From positions 1 through 53,317 of IMG/VR virus record IMGVR_UViG_3300029248_000010: a DNA stretch of 53,317 nucleotides; one strand, given 5' to 3'. The notes beneath the pieces were generated by a model. That model searched no databases, was not told where the DNA came from, and saw only the letters and a list, made by a program, of their open reading frames with translations. Below are positions 9,416-53,317 of this stretch, one piece after another. Source of the stretch: a virus. The position numbers and the translations under genes are program-made. How positions within the stretch are numbered: position 1 is the first letter of the stretch; each line of letters opens with the position of its first letter.

Positions 9416-10150
9416 ATGAATAAGAAACCTGTTTCCTATCTGCAAACAGACCCTCGATGGAAGAACAAAGACTACTCCGCCAAGGGTGAGTCCACTACTA
9501 TCGGTGCTTCTGGCTGCGGACCGACAGCAGCGGCTATGCTAATTGAGACTCTTACTGGCAAGACCTTCACCCCGGAGGATGCTTGTAGGTGGTCTCTTCA
9601 GCATGGTTACAAGGCGGTCAAACGGGGTACATACTACTCGTACTTTGTACCTCAGTTTGCCTACTTTGGTATCCACTGCTATCAGTTGAGCTGGGAGAAC
9701 ACTTACCACAAGCCTAACTCCAGCGTCCATGACAAAGCCCTTGCACTCCTTAAACAGGGGTACTATCTCATTGCTCTGATGAAGAAAGGTAACTGGACTT
9801 CTGGTGGTCATTTTGTCGTGGTCTGGTGGGCTGATGGTAAGGTTTACATCAATGACCCTGCAAGCAAGAAAATCACTCGTATTGAGGGTGACATGAGCAC
9901 TTTCCGTAACGAAGCTGCTTACTACTGGGTCATTGATGCACGAGAGTACAACAAATCTGCTGGAAAGGAGGATGACGATGAAGTGGTAACTTACAAAACT
10001 CTGAAGGATGTCCCGAGCTGGTACAGACCCAGTGTCCAGAAGGTTGTCGAAAAGGGTGCTCTTAAGGGAGACCAGAACGGAGTTCTGAATGTGTCAGAAG
10101 ACCTATGCCGCGCCCTTACGGTTCTTGACCGTCTTGGGAAACTTGACTAA
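9416..10150 (+). CDS. Endolysin: C39-like papain-fold cysteine peptidase domain plus C-terminal SLH-like repeat
   Basis: 244 aa; YLQTDPRWKNKDY...GASGCGPTAAAMLIE...GGHFVVVWW peptidase signature; C-terminus LKDVPSWYRPSVQKVVEKGALKGDQNGVLNVSEDLCRALTVLDRL resembles one SLH repeat; followed by membrane proteins. Confidence 0.7.
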   Translation: MNKKPVSYLQTDPRWKNKDYSAKGESTTIGASGCGPTAAAMLIETLTGKTFTPEDACRWSLQHGYKAVKRGTYYSYFVPQFAYFGIHCYQLSWENTYHKPNSSVHDKALALLKQGYYLIALMKKGNWTSGGHFVVVWWADGKVYINDPASKKITRIEGDMSTFRNEAAYYWVIDAREYNKSAGKEDDDEVVTYKTLKDVPSWYRPSVQKVVEKGALKGDQNGVLNVSEDLCRALTVLDRLGKLD

Positions 10151-17126: not shown

Positions 17127-17475
17127 TCTCCTCTTCTCTCTTGGTCACTACCCAAGGCTCTCCAGTCCAATATCCCTCTTTACAGAGGTGCTGCATTGTC
17201 CCTACCCAGTCTTTTAGGGCAGCCATGGAATAAAGGACTCCAATGGAGCAGCCCACGATAGCCCATTTACGGAGCTCAAGTTCCTGCTTTTTGCTGGTCA
17301 CATTCTTGTGGTCAGGGACTTTAAGCTCCAACTTAAATGCACGACCCAAGAAGCAACCATTGATGTCTGGTCTACCTGACTGCATGGCATTGCCAGACAC
17401 ATTCTCAGCCTTGCAACCGGGAATAGAATTGAGGTACTCCAGAGCTCTATACTGAAAGTTACTTTCCAAGCTCAT
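17098..17475 (-). CDS. VRR-NUC domain nuclease
   Basis: 125 aa; SGRPDINGCFLGRAFKLELKVP...KKQELELRKW matches G.PD...(E)xK VRR-NUC pattern; adjacent to SNF2 helicase as is common in phages. Confidence 0.8.
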   Translation of the reverse strand: MSLESNFQYRALEYLNSIPGCKAENVSGNAMQSGRPDINGCFLGRAFKLELKVPDHKNVTSKKQELELRKWAIVGCSIGVLYSMAALKDWVGTMQHLCKEGYWTGEPWVVTKREEENGCESWFWV

Positions 17476-17884
17476 AGAGTTCTCCTGTCAGCCCATTCCA
17501 GCCAAAGCCGATCCTATGTAACCAGTAAAGAGGATGCTGATCAGCAAACACAGCCTTATCATCAATGTACAGGTCTGCATAGACCTTACGGGTATCGTTC
17601 TGGAAAATTTCCTTGAGCTCAGGTAGATTCTCATTTACTGCATCAAACTCAAGACCATTGTCCTTGCACCAGTTTACAGCTCTGTCAAGAGCTCTGTCAG
17701 GAGTCTCATTGTCTCTGCTGGTCCAGAGGATGAGCTTGACCCCGGCCTTTTTAAGGGCTTTGCAATAGTTTACCATAGACCAAATAGGTTCACCTACGTT
17801 AGGGTAGGCATCCTTTACCAGTGTACCATCAAAGTCCACGGCTACAATCTTAGGCAGGGTATTCTTCCAGTTAGGTTCAGTCAT
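17459..17884 (-). CDS. HAD-superfamily phosphatase
   Basis: 141 aa from ATG 17884 (ATGA coupling to upstream stop); IVAVDFDGTLV (DxDGT), LILWTSRD. Confidence 0.65.
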   Translation of the reverse strand: MTEPNWKNTLPKIVAVDFDGTLVKDAYPNVGEPIWSMVNYCKALKKAGVKLILWTSRDNETPDRALDRAVNWCKDNGLEFDAVNENLPELKEIFQNDTRKVYADLYIDDKAVFADQHPLYWLHRIGFGWNGLTGELYELGK

Positions 17885-18252
17885 TTTCTCTTCAGCTCCC
17901 TTTCCATGTGGTCTGCCAGCCAAATTCTCACCCATCCTTGGTGGTCTACATGGCTGTCATTAAAAGACCTTGCAAGGTAAGGAAACATCTTTTTGTAACG
18001 ATTTACAATGAGCTCCTTAAGAAGCGCAAGGTCACTACTTTTTGTCATTTGTAGGTCTATATTAAAGTCAAACATAGCCCACTTAGATAGATACTCAGCC
18101 AGCTCAAAGCGCTCAATGTCCTTGACGGTCAAAAACTTGAGGTACAGTAGGGCGGGAGCATAGCAAAGATGCTCCCACCGCAGTTCATCCCTATCCTCAT
18201 TGAGGACTTTGACCATGACCTTAATAAGCTTCTCGTCTCTGGGTATTGCCAT
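17881..18252 (-). CDS. Hypothetical protein
   Basis: 123 aa, packed between hydroxymethylase and HAD genes with overlaps at both ends. Confidence 0.5.
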   Translation of the reverse strand: MAIPRDEKLIKVMVKVLNEDRDELRWEHLCYAPALLYLKFLTVKDIERFELAEYLSKWAMFDFNIDLQMTKSSDLALLKELIVNRYKKMFPYLARSFNDSHVDHQGWVRIWLADHMERELKRK

Positions 18253-18949
18253 AGGGATTCAGCTCCTCCATGTTGTGTTTTGCAGTCTCATAGTCCCTCT
18301 TATAGAGATGCAGAGAGCCTGCATAATGGGTGTAACTACCGACCTGAACTCCAAGCTGCATAGCTATCAACATCTGCAGGGCACAGAAGCTAAACATATC
18401 ATAAGGAACACCCATCCAGATGTCATTGGATCTCATGTGTACCATCATGTGAAGTTTGCCCTCACGGATCAGGAACTGGAGGTAGACCGTGCAAGGCAAA
18501 TCCTTGGTCTTGGAATTATCAGCGTCCTTGATGTGGATAACCGCCTGACGACTATCAGGGTCTTTACGGAGCAGATCGACCACATAAGTCCACTGATTAA
18601 AGCCGAACTTCTTACTGATGCGGTATCCATAGGCAGAGTTTGCATGGACCCCGTCATCAGAGAGCTCATTCCACTTAGGGGCGAACTGAGCAATGTCTGC
18701 TGTCTTGTTAGACCCAGACAGATACCACAGCAGCTCACCGACTGCGTAGCGCATAGGCAGCTTACGGTACTTGCTGGTTACGATGTTACGGGTAGGGTCT
18801 TCGACGCAAAATGCAGCATTGATGACTTCGCCGACCACTGCGCCATCACGAGAGCCATTCTCATAGCCATCATCAGCCTGTTTAACAAGCTCTACAAAGG
18901 CTTGCTGCCAGACATCATTTACGGTTTTGCCCTGATAGATAGAAATCAT
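18221..18949 (-). CDS. Pyrimidine (probably dCMP) hydroxymethylase, T4 gp42 / thymidylate synthase superfamily
   Basis: 242 aa. GELLWYLSG, NSAYGYR, DPDSRQAVIHI, DLPCTVYLQFLIREGKLHMMVHMRSNDIWMGVPYD and GSLHLY track the T4 gp42 motifs recalled from memory. Asp (PYD) sits at the TS Asn position. Confidence 0.8.
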   Translation of the reverse strand: MISIYQGKTVNDVWQQAFVELVKQADDGYENGSRDGAVVGEVINAAFCVEDPTRNIVTSKYRKLPMRYAVGELLWYLSGSNKTADIAQFAPKWNELSDDGVHANSAYGYRISKKFGFNQWTYVVDLLRKDPDSRQAVIHIKDADNSKTKDLPCTVYLQFLIREGKLHMMVHMRSNDIWMGVPYDMFSFCALQMLIAMQLGVQVGSYTHYAGSLHLYKRDYETAKHNMEELNPYGNTQRREAY

Positions 18950-19326
18950 CTGTAACCTCCTGTCGTCAAGTTCACCGGCAATTTGTTAGGAGGCCTGATC
19001 GGTTCATTGCAGGGCTTACAGCCGTCCTGTGCAAACATAGATTCCTTCAGCCCCTCACGAGCTGCTCTATGCTCAGTCAGCTCCATAATGGCATAGTTGG
19101 CAATGTCCATGAGGGTATCTTCAACAGTCTCATCAGAGACCTTGAGCACGTACTCAGGCTGGATGACAGTATCCAGACGGTTGAGCTTATCAAACAGGCG
19201 CATACAGACAAAGTTCGGGTAGCGTTTACGGAGCTGAGCAAAGCTATCCCCGTAGTCTGCATTCTTACGTTCGTACAGCTCATGCATCTCCTTGCAGAGC
19301 TGCTCGTGGATCTTAATCTTGTCCAT
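18946..19326 (-). CDS. DUF1599-like nucleotide-modification-associated protein
   Basis: 126 aa from ATG 19326 (RBS AAAGGAGG); YERKNADYGDSF...RLFDKLNRL motif; ATGA-type coupling to hydroxymethylase gene. Confidence 0.55.
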   Translation of the reverse strand: MDKIKIHEQLCKEMHELYERKNADYGDSFAQLRKRYPNFVCMRLFDKLNRLDTVIQPEYVLKVSDETVEDTLMDIANYAIMELTEHRAAREGLKESMFAQDGCKPCNEPIRPPNKLPVNLTTGGYR

Positions 19327-19327
19327 G

Positions 19328-20302
19328 TCAATCCTCCTTTTCCCACTCACGGGGCTTAATTTCAGTCAGTGGACCATCCTTAATAGCCCGTTTCATCAGC
19401 TTATAGTCATCCTTAGTAGGGGTTTCAAGGTTCTCTTTGCCTAAATGATCAGGCAGTAAACCCTCTCGCATAGGCATCAAGTTACAGATATTACAGGGGA
19501 AGAAAGTGCGCTTGTCGTGATACAAGATTCGGCGGGCAGCCTCAAACCGTTCGTGACGCCAGATATCATCAAAGGTCTGCACAGATTTATCCATACAGTT
19601 TATGATAGGAAGTTGTCCTCTAAAGTCCTGACAGCAAATGGATACCCAACCATCCCAACGGAAGACCATTTCCCGAAATATTCTGGTACAAGTTCGGTGT
19701 ACCATGGCTTTACTCGGTGGCATTCCTGCGCCACAATGATTCGTTAGCTTACGACTGACAGAAACTTCTGACAGATCAATGGCAGGATTGATGAGAAGCC
19801 GTTTTTTCTTAGGGGATTTACTTGCATATAGAGGTACACCCTTATTCATCTGTACAAATTCTACATGTACGCCGGTATCATCTTCATAGCCCTCGAGGAG
19901 TTTCTTTATGTCCTCGTGGTCAAAATGACTGTCTACGTATTCGTCCAAAGTCACGTCATTGATACCTGCATCAAACATTTTGCAGATGTTGGACAGATCT
20001 TTATTGATGGAATAACCATTTGTGAGTATCTGTATCCATGCCTTGGGCATCAGCTTTCTCATCAACTTGATGCATGAGTAGAATTGTGGATGTAAGGTAG
20101 GTTCGCCATGACCAGCAATAAGGATACGAGGGTTATATCCGCTCTCAGCAATAAGCTGACACTGTTTCTTAAGGACAGGTTTTGTGATATAATCAATTTT
20201 GTGTTTGAACCCGCTGGTCCCACAGAATTGACAACGACGGTTACAACCTTGGACAAGTTCAATCTGAACTGTGTTTGGCTTATAAAATGCTTTATTTCTC
20301 AA
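19328..20302 (-). CDS. Radical SAM enzyme with Cys-rich SPASM-like C-terminal region
   Basis: 324 aa; TTG start with RBS AAGGAGA; GCNRRCQFCG (CxxxCxxC); later HCGAG, CTRIF, ICCQDFRG, FPCNICN cysteines. Confidence 0.8.
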   Translation of the reverse strand: MRNKAFYKPNTVQIELVQGCNRRCQFCGTSGFKHKIDYITKPVLKKQCQLIAESGYNPRILIAGHGEPTLHPQFYSCIKLMRKLMPKAWIQILTNGYSINKDLSNICKMFDAGINDVTLDEYVDSHFDHEDIKKLLEGYEDDTGVHVEFVQMNKGVPLYASKSPKKKRLLINPAIDLSEVSVSRKLTNHCGAGMPPSKAMVHRTCTRIFREMVFRWDGWVSICCQDFRGQLPIINCMDKSVQTFDDIWRHERFEAARRILYHDKRTFFPCNICNLMPMREGLLPDHLGKENLETPTKDDYKLMKRAIKDGPLTEIKPREWEKED

Positions 20303-20323
20303 AGCTTATCTCCTTTATGTGAT

Positions 20324-20343
20324 GGGGGAGCTTGTGCTCCCCC
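20324..20343 (-). promoter_or_regulatory. GC-rich intercistronic stem-loop (no U tract)
   Basis: gggggagc-ttgt-gctccccc between SSB-like gene stop and radical SAM RBS. Confidence 0.35.
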
Positions 20344-20391: not shown

Positions 20392-21069
20392 TCAGTCATC
20401 GTCTTCTTCCCAATCATCTTCGTCGTCCTTCTTGGACTTTTTGGAGGCCTTGGTTGCCTTTTTAACAGGGGCTTTCTTAGAGGACTTCTTGGACTTGGGA
20501 GCGGGTTCTTCTTCCTCCTCGTCGTCCTCATCCTCGTCCTCATCCTCATCATCCTCGTCGTCCTCTTCGGGCTCAGGCTGCTTCTTGGGCTTTTTCTTGG
20601 CTGCTACCTTTTTGGTGGGCTTGACCTCTTCCTCATCCTCATCGTCATCGATGTCATCATCATCGTCCTCATCGACTTCGTCCTCTTCGTCCAGTTCAGA
20701 GAGCTTGAGGTATTGAGAAATCTTGGCACGTTTCTGACCATTGTACTCGTCATGGATGACCTCGATGGCGCAAGCCTTGTTCAGCAGCTTGTCCAGATCG
20801 ATGGTGAGTTTACCGGTAGCCTTCATGCCAAGGGCTTCGAGGAGCATCTTGAGCTTCCAGAGAGCCTTTTCGCCGAGGGACAGGGTCTCAAAGACCTTGC
20901 ACCCCTTGCCGGAACCACCAGTGACCTCAAACTGCACCTTGAGGCCGTCATCGCCAGAGCCCTGAATGGTGCATTCCTCGATCTTAACGATCTTGGCGGG
21001 GAACTGACCCTCGGGGCAGCGGGTGAAGCTCTCAACACCGGTCATGTCGACTTTAAGTTTTCTGCTCAT
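20392..21069 (-). CDS. DUF669-like putative ssDNA-binding protein with long alternating acidic/basic tail
   Basis: 225 aa; globular about 115 aa N-domain next to Sak4-like ATPase; tail DEEDEVDEDDDDDIDDDEDEEEVKPTKKVAAKKKPKK...DDEDDWEEDDD. Confidence 0.5.
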   Translation of the reverse strand: MSRKLKVDMTGVESFTRCPEGQFPAKIVKIEECTIQGSGDDGLKVQFEVTGGSGKGCKVFETLSLGEKALWKLKMLLEALGMKATGKLTIDLDKLLNKACAIEVIHDEYNGQKRAKISQYLKLSELDEEDEVDEDDDDDIDDDEDEEEVKPTKKVAAKKKPKKQPEPEEDDEDDEDEDEDEDDEEEEEPAPKSKKSSKKAPVKKATKASKKSKKDDEDDWEEDDD

Positions 21070-23196: not shown

Positions 23197-23652
23197 TTAC
23201 TCGTCGTCCTCGTCGACTTCCTCGAAGTCATCATCGTCGTCATCTTCGACCTTCTTGGACTTCTTGACGGGCTTCTTCGCAGGCTTCTTGGACTTCTTGA
23301 CGGGCTTGACTTCCTCATCCTCGTCCTCATCCTCATCCTCGTCTTCGACTTCCTCCGGCTCCGGCTTGACCTTCTTGGGAGCAGCCTTGGCAGCCTTCTT
23401 ACCCTTCTTCTTACTGACGGGGGCATGACCCTCGTAGCTGCCGTCGTCCTCCATGACGCTGTTGGCGAACTTCTCCTTGCCCTCTTCGACGTTGATCTGC
23501 TTGGCGGTCTTGCGGTCGAAGATCATCTCGTCGCCGTTCTTCTTGAGAACAGTGATGGTCTTCTTATCGGCCTTGGCGACCTCAGACACGCACAGCTTGA
23601 TACCGGTAAAACCCTTGACGATGACCTTATCGCCCTTCTTGAGATTCAGCAT
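23197..23652 (-). CDS. Hypothetical small beta-domain protein with alternating basic/acidic tail
   Basis: 151 aa from ATG 23652 (RBS AAGGAG, 9-nt spacer); tail KKKGKKAAKAAPKKVKPEPEEVEDEDEDEDEDEEVKPVKKSKKPAKKPVKKSKKVEDDDDDDFEEVDEDDE. Confidence 0.6.
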   Translation of the reverse strand: MLNLKKGDKVIVKGFTGIKLCVSEVAKADKKTITVLKKNGDEMIFDRKTAKQINVEEGKEKFANSVMEDDGSYEGHAPVSKKKGKKAAKAAPKKVKPEPEEVEDEDEDEDEDEEVKPVKKSKKPAKKPVKKSKKVEDDDDDDFEEVDEDDE

Positions 23653-23717
23653 TTTGTTACACTCCTTAAAAAAGATTTTATTGTGGAAGCGGCTCACCGC
23701 TCCTGCTTACATCATGA

Positions 23718-23834: not shown

Positions 23835-24491
23835 TTAGCGAGTTCCCCATTGCTCTGCCATGGCTTTAGCAATACCGGGGAAAGTCTTTGCGCGGTTTTT
23901 CGCTCTATCCGTGGTAAACATGCCTTTGTGCTGTTCTCCATGTTTATGGCTATAACTTCCGCTTGGACACCATGTTGCCACAGGTTCTACAATATCAGTT
24001 GGTTGTAGCTTCGGCAGACCCTTTAACCACAGACAGGTTTTCTTACTGTAAGGATGCCCATATTCATAGGGTTGAACTATCTGTGTGTATTTTGGCATAG
24101 CAAATACCTTACTCGGTATCGGGTTTTCAACAGCAATCATTGAGATATCTGCAAGCCAGAACCGCATAAAAAAGTCTCGTGCTTGAATCCCAAGTATCAC
24201 CCTATCAGCTTGTAACTGATGTCCTTTCCAAAGATGACGCGCGCCCGCATTGCTTAGATATGTACATGGTGGATGTGCGATAAGCAGATCCCACTTCCCA
24301 ATTCTATGAGATTTACCGTCCATTGTAGTGATAATTCCACCATTAAGGGCTTTTAAGGCATCTCCTAAGATATGCCATTCAGGGTGACCACCTGATGGCT
24401 TTTGTATATCACAAGAATAAGCTTTGTGTCCAAGTTTACGAAATGCTTTACATACTTCTTGTGATTCTTCACAGGCTATCAATACTTTCAT
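23835..24491 (-). CDS. Divergent C5-cytosine methyltransferase-like protein
   Basis: 218 aa from ATG 24491 (RBS TAAGGAGG); IAHPPCTYLSNAG (PC catalytic motif), IAVENP (ENV-like). The N-terminus MKVLIACEESQEV replaces the usual FxGxG. Confidence 0.6.
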   Translation of the reverse strand: MKVLIACEESQEVCKAFRKLGHKAYSCDIQKPSGGHPEWHILGDALKALNGGIITTMDGKSHRIGKWDLLIAHPPCTYLSNAGARHLWKGHQLQADRVILGIQARDFFMRFWLADISMIAVENPIPSKVFAMPKYTQIVQPYEYGHPYSKKTCLWLKGLPKLQPTDIVEPVATWCPSGSYSHKHGEQHKGMFTTDRAKNRAKTFPGIAKAMAEQWGTR

Positions 24492-24501
24492 GTTATCCTC
24501 C

Positions 24502-29432: not shown

Positions 29433-30011
29433 TCAGTTCTCCTTCTTAACGAATCTACAGCCGGGATCTTTCACACACTCAGCGCAAGCACCGCCCTCTT
29501 TGAGCTGCTTGTAGTCACCGTTGTGAACACAGCCTACACACGGGGTAGCTTTCGCGTAACGATCAAAGTTATGGCAGTCTCCACAAGGGAAGATATGGTC
29601 AGGGATGTTTGCAAACACACAAGACTGACACTTGTAGTTTTCAATGGAAGTCTGCCCGGGAACTTCTCTGTCAATGGTGGTCTGCTCCATGCTGGAGGAT
29701 GTGTTCATCCAGTGCTCAAGGCGGCTCACCTTGCCATTGATGCGCTGCTGGAGATCATAGGGCTTGATGTCGAAAATGTTGATCACATGATCAAGGACAA
29801 TGAGGACGTCAGCGACCTCGTCCAGTGCCTTGGTGTACAAATCATTATGAGCTTTCTCACGGTCAGCGTAACGGGGGTATTTAGCACATACAGCTGCAAG
29901 CTCAGTCAATTCTTCGCAAGAGACCAGAATCTGGTTGGTTTCACCATAGGTGTCACGGGCTTTCTTGAGAATCTGAAGATGTGTGCTGGTAAGATATTTT
30001 GTGTGACTCAT
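29433..30011 (-). CDS. MazG-like all-alpha NTP pyrophosphohydrolase fused to a Cys-rich C-terminal domain
   Basis: 192 aa; ILVSCEELTELAAVCAKY...ALDEVADVLIVLDHV (EExxE...E.aD pattern); C-terminus with CQSC, CGDC, CVGC, CAEC pairs. Confidence 0.6.
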   Translation of the reverse strand: MSHTKYLTSTHLQILKKARDTYGETNQILVSCEELTELAAVCAKYPRYADREKAHNDLYTKALDEVADVLIVLDHVINIFDIKPYDLQQRINGKVSRLEHWMNTSSSMEQTTIDREVPGQTSIENYKCQSCVFANIPDHIFPCGDCHNFDRYAKATPCVGCVHNGDYKQLKEGGACAECVKDPGCRFVKKEN

Positions 30012-30021
30012 ATAGGCCTCC

Positions 30022-30504
30022 TTAACGGTCAGAGTTGTCGTCCATCCAGTCAGTGATGTGACGTACTTTTACATAGTTGATGCGGAAAATATGTTCGGCC
30101 ATGATGGAGATCTCGGCTGTACCACCATAAATGACCTCAGCTACTCCAGCAGCACAAAGAGCTCGGGCACAAGCCTCACAGGGGTAACGGGTCACATAGA
30201 CCGTAGAGCCAAACACCCTCACGCCGTTACGAGCTGCCATAGCTAAAGCATCGATCTCACTATGCAGAGCCATGCAATCAGCCGGTCCACGGTGAGCTTT
30301 ACTGTCATTCCCATGGATCTGCTTACGCCAACATCCCATGAGCTTACAGTTCTGCGGAAGAGTACGATTTGCGCCCATACTGGCAGTAGTTTCAGTACCG
30401 TTGACTCCCTTGGTAATGACACACCCTACTGAGACTTTTTGGCAGCCTGAGTGAGCGATAGCGTACTTGTATGCCATATCAAGCCATTGTTTATCAGTAT
30501 TCAT
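30022..30504 (-). CDS. dCMP (deoxycytidylate) deaminase
   Basis: 160 aa; HSEIDAL (H[AS]E) and YPCEACARAL (PCxxC) zinc-site motifs. Confidence 0.88.
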   Translation of the reverse strand: MNTDKQWLDMAYKYAIAHSGCQKVSVGCVITKGVNGTETTASMGANRTLPQNCKLMGCWRKQIHGNDSKAHRGPADCMALHSEIDALAMAARNGVRVFGSTVYVTRYPCEACARALCAAGVAEVIYGGTAEISIMAEHIFRINYVKVRHITDWMDDNSDR

Positions 30505-30506
30505 AG

Positions 30507-31319
30507 TTAGTCCTCCATGATGAATTTGATTGCTTTCCAGTTAAACTTGATAGATTCCACGCCTGATCGAGTCTTGGCGATCTTGATAAGGGTAGGATCC
30601 TTACAGGCCAGCACGAACTGAGCTACTCTCTTGTGCTGCTTCTGCTGGATAGAGTCAAGCTCTGATGCATTGCAACCACCTGTCCCCGCGCCCATGGCTG
30701 GACAGTCATACTGGATTGCATTGGTTTTAACACATTCTAATCCCTTCTGGTAGCATTCCAACTGAAGGAAGAGATCCTCATTGCCTACAAGGTCGTTACT
30801 CTGGTAATTCAAACCAGCCTTGTGGATGGCCTTGACATTGATCCCCACAGCCTGTTGGAGCTGGGATCTGCGGAGGATAGGGATCTCATCCTCGGTAAGA
30901 GACCAGCTAAAGGGACGGTAACTTGCACCCAGCATAGCTTCGTCAGTCCAGATTGCCTCCCAGCACAGCAGCACCTTGCGCCAGTCCTCCACATGACCGA
31001 TGACATTGCCGGAGGCCTTGACCTTCCCGGACTTAGGGTCAACCATAGACAGGTCAAGTCGGGTAACATCATCGTCGAGCATGATGATCTTGTCGAAGCC
31101 CTTGTGTACTGCATAGTTGAACATGACTCTACGAGTCTCACCTATATTAGACACATTGGAAATGAGGACAAGGGTGGTGTTTGGTCTGGCCTTGATCCAG
31201 GAGTAGGCTTCCTTTTCCTCCTTGCGGACAAAGACGTACAGAGGGAACTTCTGGTTCATACTACGTCGAAGGAATTTGGCATCAGGTCGTCTGTAGGACG
31301 GTACAAATACAGGAATCAT
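30507..31319 (-). CDS. GT-A-fold glycosyltransferase-like protein, candidate DNA-base glycosyltransferase
   Basis: 270 aa; MIPVFVPSYRRP start and IIMLDDDV (DxD), pattern recalled for TET/JBP-associated glycosyltransferase-type phage proteins; embedded in nucleotide-metabolism genes. Confidence 0.5.
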   Translation of the reverse strand: MIPVFVPSYRRPDAKFLRRSMNQKFPLYVFVRKEEKEAYSWIKARPNTTLVLISNVSNIGETRRVMFNYAVHKGFDKIIMLDDDVTRLDLSMVDPKSGKVKASGNVIGHVEDWRKVLLCWEAIWTDEAMLGASYRPFSWSLTEDEIPILRRSQLQQAVGINVKAIHKAGLNYQSNDLVGNEDLFLQLECYQKGLECVKTNAIQYDCPAMGAGTGGCNASELDSIQQKQHKRVAQFVLACKDPTLIKIAKTRSGVESIKFNWKAIKFIMED

Positions 31320-32326
31320 AAATCCTCCTCACTGGGAACGTACTTCTTGCGGGGACGCCCTGTACCGTTCATCAGTTTTAGGTACTTGGACAGCTCACAC
31401 ATACAGTTCTCCAGGCTCATGATGTTCATGTAACGGTCTTCCTCAGGGAGATCCCAGAAGAGGGTCTTTGGGTCAAAGTCCTTACCAAGGTGCTTAGCAA
31501 AAAGGTCTTCAAGGTTGTCTCTCAGCCAGAATAGACACTCCTCATAGTTGAGATGATCCCTATTGGTAAACAGGTAGTTAATACCACGCTTGCAGCCGAT
31601 ACCAGCTACCGTGAACTCATTCTCCGAATAAGGAAAATCCTCTATGTAGGTAAAGTCCACAAAGATCTGGTAGGCCAAGAATCGACCAATGCCATTATAG
31701 GCGACGATCTGCTCATAAGCCTCACTCTGATCATCACAGAAGGACAACCTACCTGCAAAGTTTTGCTCAGTAAGGTGCTTCATAAACCAGAGAGGACGCA
31801 TTTCTGCAATGTCCCCGCCCAGATCCTCTGGAACATACTGACTGAAAACGCGCTTCATACCAGAGGTCAGAAATGCACCTGTAAAGAAGACTCGTTTAGG
31901 ATCCTCGTCCAAAGCATCCTGCCAGACGCCGTCGTAATTCTCAGGGTCAAAGCTGCCATCAGAAAACTTTATAGGTAAGTCAAGTAGTTCTGCAGTCTGG
32001 TGCTTGTTATACAGTCGGAATAGGACACAGTTATAGATCTTGTCCGTATAGGACAGCTTTTTATTGGAGGTAATGTGCTCGATGAGCCATTTGGTTTCTC
32101 TGTCGTGCTCACGCCGGACGTTAGTGAACCTGTACTCTGCGAGGATGGTATCAGACGTCCACGGTGCAGACAGCTTGAGCACATCCTTGCGAAGATGGAT
32201 CTGGTAACGACGCTGGATGTAATTATACAGGATTCTTAGGTTGGTGTTGTTGACCGTAGGATTAGCCCCATGGATCTTGAACTGGTTTACACCGCAGTAG
32301 GGGGTATCGTTCAACTTGATCTTCAT
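31316..32326 (-). CDS. HhH-containing enzyme, candidate DNA base-hypermodification protein (aGPT-pyrophosphorylase-like?)
   Basis: 336 aa; YRFTNVRREHDRET, FFTGAFLTSG, YNGIGRFLAYQIFVDF (helix-hairpin-helix GIG motif), NCMCELSKY; family assignment is from memory and context only. Confidence 0.35.
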   Translation of the reverse strand: MKIKLNDTPYCGVNQFKIHGANPTVNNTNLRILYNYIQRRYQIHLRKDVLKLSAPWTSDTILAEYRFTNVRREHDRETKWLIEHITSNKKLSYTDKIYNCVLFRLYNKHQTAELLDLPIKFSDGSFDPENYDGVWQDALDEDPKRVFFTGAFLTSGMKRVFSQYVPEDLGGDIAEMRPLWFMKHLTEQNFAGRLSFCDDQSEAYEQIVAYNGIGRFLAYQIFVDFTYIEDFPYSENEFTVAGIGCKRGINYLFTNRDHLNYEECLFWLRDNLEDLFAKHLGKDFDPKTLFWDLPEEDRYMNIMSLENCMCELSKYLKLMNGTGRPRKKYVPSEEDL

Positions 32327-33018
32327 AAAGCCTCCTTAGTCTTAAAGAACTTGTGATTGCCGATGGTCATTACATGAATGAGGTCAGTCTCATGCCAGTG
32401 AGAGTACTTGCCTCCAACCGTAGAGTAAAAATATTCAATAGGTTCGGAGGTGATTCTTTCTCCCAGGATGAAGACGGCAATACAGGCATCCTCTACATCA
32501 GATTTAGCCTTATCATTATTGAGAGGGGAGGCATACCTATTTGGGAGCTTAACAACCTCTTCCGGGGTCATGTTACGGAGCTGCGCCGTGTCCAGGATGC
32601 ACTGAGCCACAGCCATCTGACCGTCATAGGGCTCGCCCCAGCACTCCTGAGCTACCACTCCCAGCACATAGTCCCAGTCCCAACCGAGATCGGGGATGGT
32701 AGCAGGCTGGTCATACACAGAGTTATTGAATACGAGGGACTCTTCGATGATGGTCTCATCCTCGAGGACGTCAGTTTGCTCGGCGGGGTACATAAGTTCC
32801 TGTTGGAGCTCCCGTGTCTCCTGAAGGACTTCAGAGGACGTCTGAAGGACTTCCTCAACTTCCTGCTGAAGGGTCTGGAACTGCGCACTGATCGTTAGGT
32901 AGCAGCCAACAATGAAGCCCAGTAGACCAGCAGTAATGATGAGGATCAGGTTGGTAATGCTGCGCATACGCTTGTTAATGTAGCGGACACTGTCCGGATG
33001 ATAATAGTAAGACATCAT
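32323..33018 (-). CDS. Membrane-anchored SleB/CwlJ-type cell wall hydrolase
   Basis: 231 aa; TM ITNLILIITAGLLGFIVGCYLTI, coiled coil, then LGVVAQECWGEPYDGQMAVAQCILDTA (Hydrolase_2 signature). Confidence 0.65.
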   Translation of the reverse strand: MMSYYYHPDSVRYINKRMRSITNLILIITAGLLGFIVGCYLTISAQFQTLQQEVEEVLQTSSEVLQETRELQQELMYPAEQTDVLEDETIIEESLVFNNSVYDQPATIPDLGWDWDYVLGVVAQECWGEPYDGQMAVAQCILDTAQLRNMTPEEVVKLPNRYASPLNNDKAKSDVEDACIAVFILGERITSEPIEYFYSTVGGKYSHWHETDLIHVMTIGNHKFFKTKEAL

Positions 33019-52983: not shown

Positions 52984-53317
52984 ATGAACGAAATTACAAG
53001 CATTGAGCAGCTCGCTCAGTACTCTATGGGTCAGGTGGTTCAATTCCCTGATTTTGCCGAGGGTCAGCCTTTTGTGGCACGCATTAAGCGTCCCTCTATG
53101 CTTGTCCTTGCTAAGACTGGACAAATCCCGAATGCCCTGCTTACCAAGGCAAACAGTCTATTTGTGGGTAAGGGCATCAATGATAAGGATACAGGTGCTA
53201 TGAAGGATCTCTTCAAGATCCTCGATGTCATCTGCGAGGCTTGCTTCGTTGAGCCTACTTATCAGCAGATCAAGGAGTCCGGCATTGAACTGACCGATGA
53301 GCAGCTCATGTTCATCT
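52984..53317 (+). CDS. Tail assembly chaperone, N-terminal part (continues across the junction to 204-206)
   Basis: RBS AAGGAGGA; MNEITSIEQLAQYSMGQVVQFPDFAEGQPFVARIKRPSMLVLAKTGQIPNALL...; full gene is 146 aa when joined with 1-206. Confidence 0.8.
   Translation, partial: MNEITSIEQLAQYSMGQVVQFPDFAEGQPFVARIKRPSMLVLAKTGQIPNALLTKANSLFVGKGINDKDTGAMKDLFKILDVICEACFVEPTYQQIKESGIELTDEQLMFI
53219..53317. repeat. Terminal overlap, exact copy of 1-99
   Basis: See feature 1-99. Confidence 0.95.

Follow-up and report, generated by a model that had tools for sequence, protein, structure and literature searches.

A phage gene cluster for putative cytosine hypermodification that includes a Twitch-type radical SAM enzyme

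The locus and its probable cytosine-type hydroxymethylase

We analyzed the IMG/VR virus record IMGVR_UViG_3300029248_000010 from position 1 to position 53,317 (this whole stretch of 53,317 nucleotides is referred to as the window). The window is a phage genome of ~53 kb, in which a replication module occupies ~14.3-36.8 kb of the minus strand. Within this module three consecutive genes code, in their order along the minus strand, for a radical S-adenosylmethionine (SAM) enzyme, a DUF1599 protein and a homolog of thymidylate synthase (Table 1). An earlier note, made from the sequence of this DNA, had proposed these genes as the core of a route to hypermodified cytosine. All three open reading frames (ORFs) lie where the note placed them, on the minus strand, and their translations contain every motif quoted there. 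Moreover, the Pfam matches of all three proteins exceed the gathering scores and are well above chance level. The genes had been described as overlapping or abutting. The DUF1599 and hydroxymethylase genes indeed overlap by a common ATGA, but the stop of the radical SAM gene and the start of the DUF1599 gene are most likely separated by a 1-base gap and do not overlap.

The most likely start of the DUF1599 gene is the ATG at 19326, not the listed GTG at 19350, because all the close homologs are 126 residues long and begin with MDKI. The TTG start proposed for the radical SAM gene is credible, since its spacing from the ribosome-binding site AAAGGAGAT is the same as that of the DUF1599 ATG in L094, a relative of the window. 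Along the minus strand this ribosome-binding site, shared by the window and L094 arrangements, is preceded by a perfect hairpin. The hairpin has a single exact match within the window (chance expectation 0) and is also kept in L094, where it lies upstream of DUF1599.

The thymidylate synthase-like protein matches Pfam Thymidylat_synt (PF00303) with an E-value of 1.4e-32 (113 bits vs a cut-off of 24.3). Its closest solved relative in the PDB is MilA, a CMP 5-hydroxymethylase (E 5.5e-34), whereas ordinary thymidylate synthases match at 1e-24 or weaker. An alignment (A1) was made of the protein, the relatives nearest to it among cultured phages, T4 gp42, three dUMP hydroxymethylases and E. coli ThyA. 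Position by position, the segment MRSNDIWMGVPYD pairs with QRSADVFLGVPFN in a thymidylate synthase and also with E. coli ThyA. Therefore, its last Asp corresponds to the position of Asn177; VPYD of the window protein is aligned to FRND of T4 gp42 and to LPFN of ThyA. The residue at this position (E. coli numbering), when it is Asp, reads N3/N4 of cytosine. In A1, Asp is found in the window protein, in the homologs of Agathobaculum phage AB434P2, VPE25 and a Manatee Spring siphovirus, and in T4 gp42. Asn is found in SP10, PaMx11 (M6-like), the SPO1-like phage Goe26 and ThyA, so that all the known dUMP hydroxymethylases in the alignment (SP10, PaMx11 and Goe26) keep Asn. The Asp grouping also takes in MilA, alongside T4 gp42 and VPE25. 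The assignment to the cytosine type, made in the earlier note, thus holds: the alignment to T4 gp42 and ThyA confirms the Asp, and the protein is nearer to MilA than to ordinary ThyA.

The window protein is 54% identical to its homolog from Agathobaculum phage AB434P2 by tblastn (53% in A1), 44% (43% in A1) to that from Enterococcus phage VPE25 and only 27% to T4 gp42. The catalytic Cys153 (P-C-(T/H) motif) is invariant across A1. The window protein terminates 26 residues past the HLY motif and, like gp42, does without the C-terminal segment of ThyA. This truncation, the best PDB match to a hydroxymethylase and the presence in the genome of enzymes that need a hydroxymethyl group (TAGT and HMUDK, see below) suggest hydroxymethylase activity, in which the methylene intermediate would be hydrated rather than reduced by a hydride to a methyl group. 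The protein is thus probably a 5-hydroxymethylase of deoxycytidine monophosphate (dCMP), a newly found member of an already known kind. Among the ~40 window ORFs scanned there is no second thymidylate synthase homolog; the sole one is of the Asp type. Likewise, when the window protein was used as a query against the ORFs of each syntenic relative, the Asp-type enzyme was the only match. The DNA of VPE25 is resistant to bisulfite conversion and to MspI and is cleaved by PvuRts1I, and therefore contains a glycosylated modified cytosine (PMC4999554).

The DUF1599-like identity of the middle gene (ORF 18946-19350), suggested previously, agrees with the Pfam match (36.8 bits vs a cut-off of 25, E 5e-9). 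We collected 275 homologs, in which a core of ~90 residues is nearly invariant; within it, KNADYGDSF...DTLMDIANYA is invariant in 31 homologs. The fold model consists of three helices (predicted local distance difference test, pLDDT, 74). The idea of a MazG-like pyrophosphatase (a dCTPase like T4 gp56) gained support only below significance: the phmmer match to AF_0060 is weak (E 0.19), the top Foldseek matches, to iMazG, are below significance (E 0.8-0.9, probability 0.3-0.66), and a profile search against the PDB gave no match. A BLAST comparison with the MazG-like protein of the window was likewise without a match. Gene fusions and gene exchange point to a role in nucleotide-pool metabolism. 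DUF1599 is fused to a C-terminal HAD-phosphatase domain like that encoded at 17459-17935 of the window (P0177) and to an N-terminal DUF4406 (P0159), and in many syntenic relatives its slot is occupied by a gene for a P-loop kinase resembling deoxynucleoside monophosphate (dNMP) and thymidylate kinases.

The radical SAM family and its glycosyltransferase partners

The radical SAM protein matches Pfam Radical_SAM (PF04055; E 8.6e-11, 42.7 bits vs a cut-off of 29.5) and SPASM (E 4e-6, 27.4 bits vs 21.5). Its cluster motif, C20-x3-C24-x2-C27, is invariant in 38 sequences. In the family alignment the auxiliary region is conserved as C205-x12-G-x4-C223/C224 and C270-x2-C273, while C190 lies within a conserved NHCGAG motif, which, together with CCxDFRG and RxWE, is the family's own. 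The description of the Cys-rich tail as SPASM-like is borne out by the Pfam match, but not in the sense of a full domain. The seven-Cys SPASM motif (CX9-15GX4C...CX2CX5CX3C...C) is not present, as there is no Cys at +5 or +3 after CX2C, and the pattern is instead a truncated, Twitch-like one. The enzyme is predicted to carry a Twitch-like domain for one auxiliary [4Fe-4S] cluster. Eleven Arg residues are conserved in at least 90% of the radical SAM sequences and the median pI is 8.8; both features would fit a polyanionic substrate.

The AlphaFold model (pLDDT 94) superposes on radical SAM structures. Its best Foldseek match is BtrN (E 3.3e-13, TM-score of 0.79 on the target), which is also the best PDB match at the sequence level, and the next is SpeY (E 6e-8). 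BtrN and SpeY are Twitch radical SAM dehydrogenases of cyclitols and sugars in aminoglycoside and spectinomycin biosynthesis. Lower in the structural list are the peptide-directed EpeE, anSME, SuiB and SkfB as well as the nucleoside- or nucleotide-directed BlsE, AbmM and viperin-like enzymes; BlsE, AbmM and viperin score well under BtrN and SpeY. Kinship with the radical SAM proteins of phages M6 (gp53) and SP10 (gp185) was also considered and rejected: spore photoproduct lyase is not among the top 50 structural matches, and tblastn against 50,697 GenBank phage records (SP10 included) gave no match.

The family is nevertheless large. It has 237 metagenomic homologs, and at a limit of E 1e-30 we count 294 family representatives, each standing for a 50%-identity cluster. 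A single-sequence query against viral contigs gave no match, and an alignment-based scan was needed to reveal 101 matches on IMG/VR contigs. Among the matches listed from bacteria and archaea (representative genomes, 185,579 species) there is no full-length member, and the family appears confined to viruses. One homolog carries the JGI label ‘organic radical activating enzyme’. NrdG, QueE, MoaA, viperin and maturases of peptides that are made on ribosomes and modified after translation (RiPPs) were rejected as identities, with NCBIfam scores of 15-49 bits vs cut-offs of 131-725 and matches to the N-terminal core only; for the maturase models the cut-offs are 300 bits or more. The peptide maturase, which the earlier note had named as the contrary possibility, is not borne out by these scores or by the neighboring genes, which are those of DNA replication and modification. 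The family fits no curated family. In one of its members, P0271 (623 residues), the sequence is split by an intein that carries an HNH endonuclease.

Comparison with L094 reveals the status of the radical SAM gene within this genome. L094 is 91-94% identical to the window across 9.2-31 kb, and its aligned region is without exactly two window segments, 19341-20307 (the radical SAM gene) and ~23850-24501 (a phrog_757 methyltransferase). The radical SAM difference is a clean 967-bp indel. The same hairpin and AAAGGAGAT ribosome-binding site precede either the DUF1599 ATG (L094) or the radical SAM TTG (window), and a new AAGGAGG for DUF1599 is provided in the window by the 3' terminus of the radical SAM gene. 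This gene is thus an optional accessory cassette. Since L094 lacks it, the pathway of hydroxymethylase, DUF1599, kinase and TAGT does not depend on the radical SAM enzyme, from which a further step would come. The methyltransferase gene is strain-specific and, in other relatives, does not accompany the radical SAM gene; its product has no Pfam, NCBIfam or PDB match.

The partner of the radical SAM enzyme is more evident in other viruses. Our neighborhood census covered 87 loci with 32 radical SAM lineages at 70% identity. In 22 of the 32 lineages a gene for a DNA glycosyltransferase of the TAGT (TET-associated) family lies within 300 nt of the radical SAM gene. Two proteins (P0243 and P0265) join TAGT and the radical SAM enzyme in single polypeptides, and in P0247 a GT-B-like domain is fused to the radical SAM enzyme. 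On account of the single-polypeptide fusions, the radical SAM enzyme and TAGT are probably coupled functionally. The enzyme is therefore tied to DNA hypermodification, as had been proposed, but through a different gene. Its conserved partner is TAGT and not the hydroxymethylase, with which the earlier note had coupled it. Nor are the three genes a conserved core: L094 is without the radical SAM gene, and the dNMP kinase-like gene replaces DUF1599 in relatives. The order typical of the syntenic siphoviruses is DUF669, TAGT, radical SAM, dNMP kinase-like or DUF1599, Asp-type hydroxymethylase, HAD, VRR-NUC and SNF2. A hydroxymethylase of the Asp or Asn type accompanies the radical SAM gene in >15 loci. 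The radical SAM/TAGT pair is found with Asn-type hydroxymethylases too (L050, L086, L081 and L090), and its occurrence with both types fits action on the appended group, not on the base. Clusters 1, 2, 3 and 10 of the neighboring proteins have no profile similarity to TAGT in hhalign comparisons.

In the window itself no TAGT adjoins the radical SAM gene, and so the probable partner is the TAGT encoded in the kinase operon described below. This protein matches a hidden Markov model built from the glycosyltransferases encoded next to the radical SAM gene in relatives (4.8e-29).

A further protein of 228 residues is encoded directly downstream of the radical SAM gene in >40 loci, within the large clades (e.g. 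L032:10915-11598). In P0248 it is fused to the radical SAM enzyme (residues 321-533). It carries the motifs PHSDD and GHPFH; of its PDB profile matches, six in number and all weak (E 0.1-1.1), four are LmbE/PIG-L sugar N-deacetylases, which is suggestive of an LmbE-like sugar deacetylase. The protein has no copy in the window; in the phages that encode it, it hints at an N-acetylhexosamine on DNA.

ParB_N genes often accompany the TAGT/radical SAM pair. In the ParB-associated loci (L001, L004, L014, L015 and L017-L028) a second radical SAM protein of ~430-470 residues is encoded beside the TAGT/Twitch pair (e.g. L024:8545-9849 and L020:7487-8902). It has the motif CAYNCLYC and a Pfam Radical_SAM match under the cut-off. 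Judged by the motif, it may resemble spore photoproduct lyase. A 746-residue protein of L002, with TAGT at its N-terminus, clusters with this CAYNCLYC family. The ParB loci may thus represent a DNA modification module with two radical enzymes. The CAYNCLYC-type protein is not present in the window.

The distal operon and other features of the genome

The modification system of the window extends ~10 kb further on the same strand, to an operon (29433-33638) that had been overlooked. It codes for a DNA glycosyltransferase, a DNA kinase, a deaminase and candidate nucleotide hydrolases (Table 1). The TAGT protein also matches phrog_842 ‘beta-glucosyl-HMC-alpha-glucosyltransferase’ (6.7e-14). Its start is overlapped by the kinase stop by 4 nt. 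The MazG-like protein has no Pfam match. The kinase, a homolog of 5-hydroxymethyl-dU DNA kinase (5-HMUDK), shares 36-38% identity along its entire length with its counterpart from ViI-like Ackermannviridae. A lysis-type Hydrolase_2 domain is also encoded inside the operon, which is an odd location for it.

Table 1. Features of the window discussed in the text
Coordinates	Strand	Feature	Evidence or remark
9416-10150		C39-like peptidase with SLH domain	
17459-17935	-	HAD-type phosphatase, BT0820 family	NCBIfam NF046079 6.8e-29 (under its cut-off); phrog_1238
18221-18949	-	Probable pyrimidine hydroxymethylase of the thymidylate synthase superfamily, cytosine (Asp) type	Pfam; MilA match; Asp residue
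18946-19326	-	DUF1599 (‘nucleotide modification associated domain 1’, PF07659), 126 residues	Pfam
19328-20302	-	Radical SAM enzyme with Twitch-like (truncated SPASM) auxiliary-cluster domain, TTG start	Pfam; fold model
20324-20343		Perfect G+C-rich hairpin GGGGGAGC-TTGT-GCTCCCCC	Between DUF669 and radical SAM genes
23835-24491	-	phrog_757 ‘DNA methyltransferase’, motifs AHPPCTYLS (PPC) and ENP	PHROG
29433-30011	-	MazG-like nucleoside triphosphate pyrophosphohydrolase (candidate)	phrog_2245 1.6e-11
30022-30504	-	dCMP deaminase	Pfam dCMP_cyt_deam_1 1.4e-14; phrog_174 9.4e-24
30507-31319	-	TAGT-family (TET-associated) DNA glycosyltransferase	Pfam TAGT (PF20691) 7.2e-14, 52.6 bits vs 27.5
31316-32326	-	5-hydroxymethyl-dU DNA kinase (5-HMUDK) homolog	Pfam HMUDK_hel 8.6e-64
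32323-33018	-	Protein with C-terminal Hydrolase_2 (cell-wall hydrolase) domain	Between HD hydrolase and kinase
33015-33638	-	HD-type metal-dependent phosphohydrolase (candidate nucleotide hydrolase)	phrog_28876 6.3e-26
36465-36839	-	Homolog of the Spo0A C-terminal DNA-binding domain	2.6e-20

A similar combination occurs in a cultured phage. Microbacterium phage WilliamStrong (L096) codes for an Asp-type hydroxymethylase with RSMDAVFGYRAD (gp49), HMUDK (gp52) and a TAGT-like protein (gp46), and no deaminase is annotated within the 13.6 kb examined. The HMUDK kinase and the Asp-type hydroxymethylase thus co-occur in two unrelated phage groups. Furthermore, an HMUDK-type kinase has been proposed to phosphorylate 5-hydroxymethylcytosine (5hmC) made by TET (Burke et al. 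2021). Taken together, the WilliamStrong combination and this proposal make it plausible that the HMUDK homolog of the window acts on 5hmC DNA. In the literature examined, we found no experimental characterization of a 5hmC-directed kinase of this type. Both the kinase and TAGT belong to families already described, here in the less familiar context of a cytosine-type system. Two expected companions of such enzymes gave no match among the window ORFs scanned. These are the Tet_JBP dioxygenase and the aGPT-pyrophosphorylase (DNA-glycosylase fold; Pfam and PHROG searches in which small or divergent ORFs were not exhaustively covered).

The HAD phosphatase gene lies two genes downstream of the hydroxymethylase gene, and its position is kept in syntenic relatives. 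The protein encoded at 20392-21069 (minus strand) is a member of the DUF669 family with a long acidic, Lys-interspersed low-complexity tail (DDEDEDE...KKSKK), and that encoded at 23197-23697 (minus strand) likewise ends in such a tail. A DNA-level search of the phage collection gave only low-complexity matches of the acidic tail, to ‘ssDNA-binding protein’ genes of jumbo phages. Between ~4000 and 10000 the window has a G+C content of 0.55-0.59, vs ~0.47 elsewhere, and a strong positive AT skew. This region, which contains large plus-strand ORFs, presumably structural genes, may be of different origin.

The phage is of a gut type, and its host is probably an endospore-forming member of Firmicutes, most likely one of the Clostridia. 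This is suggested by the Spo0A_C homolog, the C39/SLH protein, the lysis genes of the relative L092 (Amidase_2 and holin_1) and the nearest cultured hydroxymethylase, which is that of Agathobaculum phage AB434P2. The Spo0A_C homolog may interfere with the host's control of sporulation.

Proposed pathway, its alternatives and known systems

We propose that the phage makes 5hmC DNA and glycosylates it, and that the radical SAM enzyme then tailors the sugar; we put the probability of this reading at about one half. The chemical steps are our suggestions, built on what the analysis shows: to which families the proteins belong, which residue sets the specificity, how the Cys residues are arranged, what the fold resembles, and which genes adjoin or are fused. 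The Asp-type thymidylate synthase homolog, whose family and specificity residue are seen directly, would convert dCMP to 5-hydroxymethyl-dCMP (hm-dCMP), which after phosphorylation would be incorporated by the phage DNA polymerase. Nucleotide pools would be shaped by DUF1599, the MazG-like, HD and HAD hydrolases and dCMP deaminase. After replication, TAGT would add a sugar to the hydroxymethyl group, as expected from its family membership, and in a second branch the HMUDK-type kinase may phosphorylate hydroxymethyl groups. The Twitch radical SAM enzyme would work on the product or substrate of TAGT. SAM would be cleaved at the CX3CX2C cluster and the 5'-deoxyadenosyl radical would take a hydrogen from the DNA-linked sugar. 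If the auxiliary cluster then takes an electron, as in BtrN and SpeY, a keto-sugar would result; if a conserved Cys gives a hydrogen back, the outcome would be an epimer. Possible products may therefore include keto-, epimerized or otherwise rearranged glycosyl-5hmC. The likely benefit of the cassette would be an altered look of glycosyl-5hmC to type IV restriction enzymes of the host.

Several points weigh against this reading. That the product is a hydroxymethyl and not a methyl group is suggested by the context and by the missing C-terminal segment, and the nucleoside makeup of the phage and of its radical SAM-bearing relatives is a prediction from genes. The BtrN/SpeY-like fold leaves the substrate unfixed, as related Twitch/SPASM enzymes use peptides (EpeE and anSME) or nucleosides (BlsE and AbmM). 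A keto-sugar normally needs follow-up by an aminotransferase or reductase, and none is conserved near the radical SAM gene. The LmbE-like assignment of the 228-residue protein is drawn from PDB E-values of 0.1-1.1 and motifs. In the window the radical SAM gene is not beside TAGT, which lies 10 kb away in a kinase operon shared with L094. Finally, dCMP deaminase and the HMUDK homolog are classic parts of the thymidine pathway. Given these genes, part of the modification could sit on 5-hydroxymethyluracil (5hmU) derived from deamination of hm-dCMP.

The last point, taken further, leads to a view in which the modified base is mainly thymine: either the deaminase turns hm-dCMP to hm-dUMP, or the Asp-type enzyme itself takes dUMP, and 5hmU is then processed by HMUDK and TAGT. 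The similarity of the kinase to that of the thymidine-modifying ViI-type phages would be natural here, as would the presence of the deaminase, MazG-like and HD genes in one operon with HMUDK. T-even dCMP deaminases accept hm-dCMP. We nevertheless consider a mainly thymine-directed system unlikely. All the known dUMP hydroxymethylases that we aligned keep Asn, whereas the sole thymidylate synthase homolog among the window ORFs scanned, as in the searches of its syntenic relatives, is of the Asp type. In addition, the scan revealed no aGPT-pyrophosphorylase-like gene, and WilliamStrong pairs an Asp-type enzyme with the kinase without an annotated deaminase in the region examined. The radical SAM enzyme might also act before the transfer, on the nucleotide-sugar donor or on the hm-dCMP pool, with TAGT or the polymerase then installing the unusual group. 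The location of its gene beside those for the hydroxymethylase, DUF1599 or dNMP kinase, and HAD phosphatase agrees with this possibility; BlsE, AbmM and viperin-like enzymes are among the structural matches, and the conserved arginines could bind a diphosphate. These structural matches, however, score much lower than BtrN and SpeY, the neighborhood has no conserved gene for a nucleotidyltransferase or for other steps of sugar activation, and covalent fusion to a DNA glycosyltransferase is less expected for a donor-making enzyme. Action at the level of the pool thus seems rather improbable to us.

Alternatively, the radical SAM enzyme could be an oxygen-independent counterpart of TET/JBP. It would take a hydrogen from the C5-methyl group of thymine or 5-methylcytosine in DNA, and the radical, oxidized by the auxiliary cluster, would be trapped by water or a sugar. 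In this way the enzyme would make the hydroxymethyl acceptor for TAGT and provide an anaerobic route to base J-like DNA. Association with TET/JBP is what defines the TAGT family, and here the partner position is held by the radical SAM enzyme, often together with ParB_N; ParB is associated with phage TET clusters (PMC8256090). A fusion with TAGT would be equally expected for a pair of hydroxylase and transferase. Several ParB/TAGT/radical SAM loci have no thymidylate synthase-like gene within 10 kb, and the window, relative to L094, gained the methyltransferase (PPC and ENP motifs) along with the radical SAM gene. The hosts, judging by the Spo0A_C homolog and the Agathobaculum phage relative, are probably anaerobes, in which TET cannot work. 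On the other hand, in >15 loci a hydroxymethylase of either type already supplies the hydroxymethyl group, and in other relatives the methyltransferase and radical SAM genes are not found together. Carbohydrate chemistry is indicated by the BtrN/SpeY folds and by the fusion to what is probably a sugar deacetylase, and the CAYNCLYC enzyme of the ParB loci is a better candidate for base-directed chemistry. We therefore regard an anaerobic TET/JBP analog as a distinctly minor possibility. A role unrelated to DNA, with the gene as a moron whose product is a maturase of RiPPs, an activase of a glycyl-radical enzyme or a cofactor enzyme, might be read from the presence of EpeE, anSME, SuiB and SkfB lower in the structural list and from the JGI label. 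It is hardly credible, as radical SAM genes adjoin and fuse to DNA glycosyltransferases, no family member appears among the matches listed from bacterial and archaeal genomes, the NCBIfam matches are far below the cut-offs and limited to the N-terminal core, and the ORFs scanned include no NrdD, que or precursor-peptide genes.

Tailoring of a DNA-linked sugar, if true, would be radical chemistry without precedent. It would mean that a virus-restricted Twitch family adds radical carbohydrate chemistry to DNA modification. Tentatively, and with less assurance than for the pathway itself, we suggest that this is the first radical SAM family that works as a unit with TAGT, either to edit a DNA-attached sugar or to make the attachment point without oxygen, that its product is an undescribed hypermodified cytosine, and that HMUDK acts on 5hmC in parallel, which would give phages of anaerobic Firmicutes a cytosine counterpart of the thymidine hypermodification pathways. 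How restriction, CRISPR and type IV defense turn out is decided by the hypermodifications of phage DNA, and research on them has yielded such tools as T4 beta-glucosyltransferase and the TET and 5hmC enzymes. The window and L094, with and without the gene, form a natural near-isogenic pair, which makes the idea of sugar tailoring directly testable.

Known systems share parts of this pathway. The hydroxymethylase resembles T4 gp42 and the VPE25 enzyme in its thymidylate synthase fold, catalytic Cys, Asp at the Asn177 position and short C-terminus. As in the glucosyl-5hmC pathway of T4 and VPE25, a DNA glycosyltransferase and dCMP deaminase are encoded in the same genome. Unlike T4, the window has no alpha- or beta-glucosyltransferases of the T4 type and adds DUF1599, the HMUDK-type kinase and the radical SAM enzyme; the last indeed goes beyond the T4 scheme, which has none, as the earlier note had stated. 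To our knowledge, glycosylation or arabinosylation is the last step in the known routes of cytosine hypermodification. In T6-like phages, enzymes of the TAGT family attach the second glucose (PMC13390438).

With BtrN and SpeY the radical SAM enzyme shares the CX3CX2C cluster, a CX12GX4C...CX2C domain for one auxiliary cluster and carbohydrate-enzyme partners in the genome. It differs in its low identity (15-19%), in being 50-80 residues longer, and in its own motifs and eleven conserved Arg. Moreover, its presumed substrate is a DNA-linked sugar rather than a free cyclitol, and its family is seemingly virus-only. M6 gp53 has been described as a spore photoproduct lyase-like enzyme that isomerizes an amino acid attached to thymine. 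Like M6 gp53 and SP10 gp185, the window enzyme is a radical SAM protein in a phage DNA hypermodification cluster with a 5-HMUDK kinase, but those two are spore photoproduct lyase-like and have no SPASM/Twitch domain. The isomerase of M6 is the only radical SAM step in DNA modification that we know of. Such steps had been attributed to thymidine hypermodification in Pseudomonas and Salmonella phages; this is correct for Pseudomonas (M6), whereas Salmonella ViI has none, and the other case is Bacillus SP10. In our full-text literature searches, no publication connected radical SAM enzymes with cytosine, glycosyl or sugar hypermodification. With the 5-HMUDK thymidine pathway as a whole (phiW-14, SP10, ViI and M6) the window shares the kinase, but the Asn-type hydroxymethylase and aGPT-pyrophosphorylase of that pathway were not found in the window scans.

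Phage clusters of C5-methyltransferases, TET and glycosyltransferases, reportedly described by Iyer and colleagues in 2013, provide the other close parallel. They share with the present system TAGT, the P-loop HMUDK-type kinase, the ParB association and a combinatorial arrangement of cassettes around 5hmC. In the window, unlike in those clusters, 5hmC would be supplied before replication by the thymidylate synthase homolog, there is no TET/JBP in the ORFs scanned, and a radical SAM enzyme takes the place beside TAGT. Burke et al. 2021 make no mention of radical SAM enzymes. As a whole, the system belongs with the phage clusters for hydroxymethylpyrimidine hypermodification, and the pyrimidine that it modifies is most likely cytosine.

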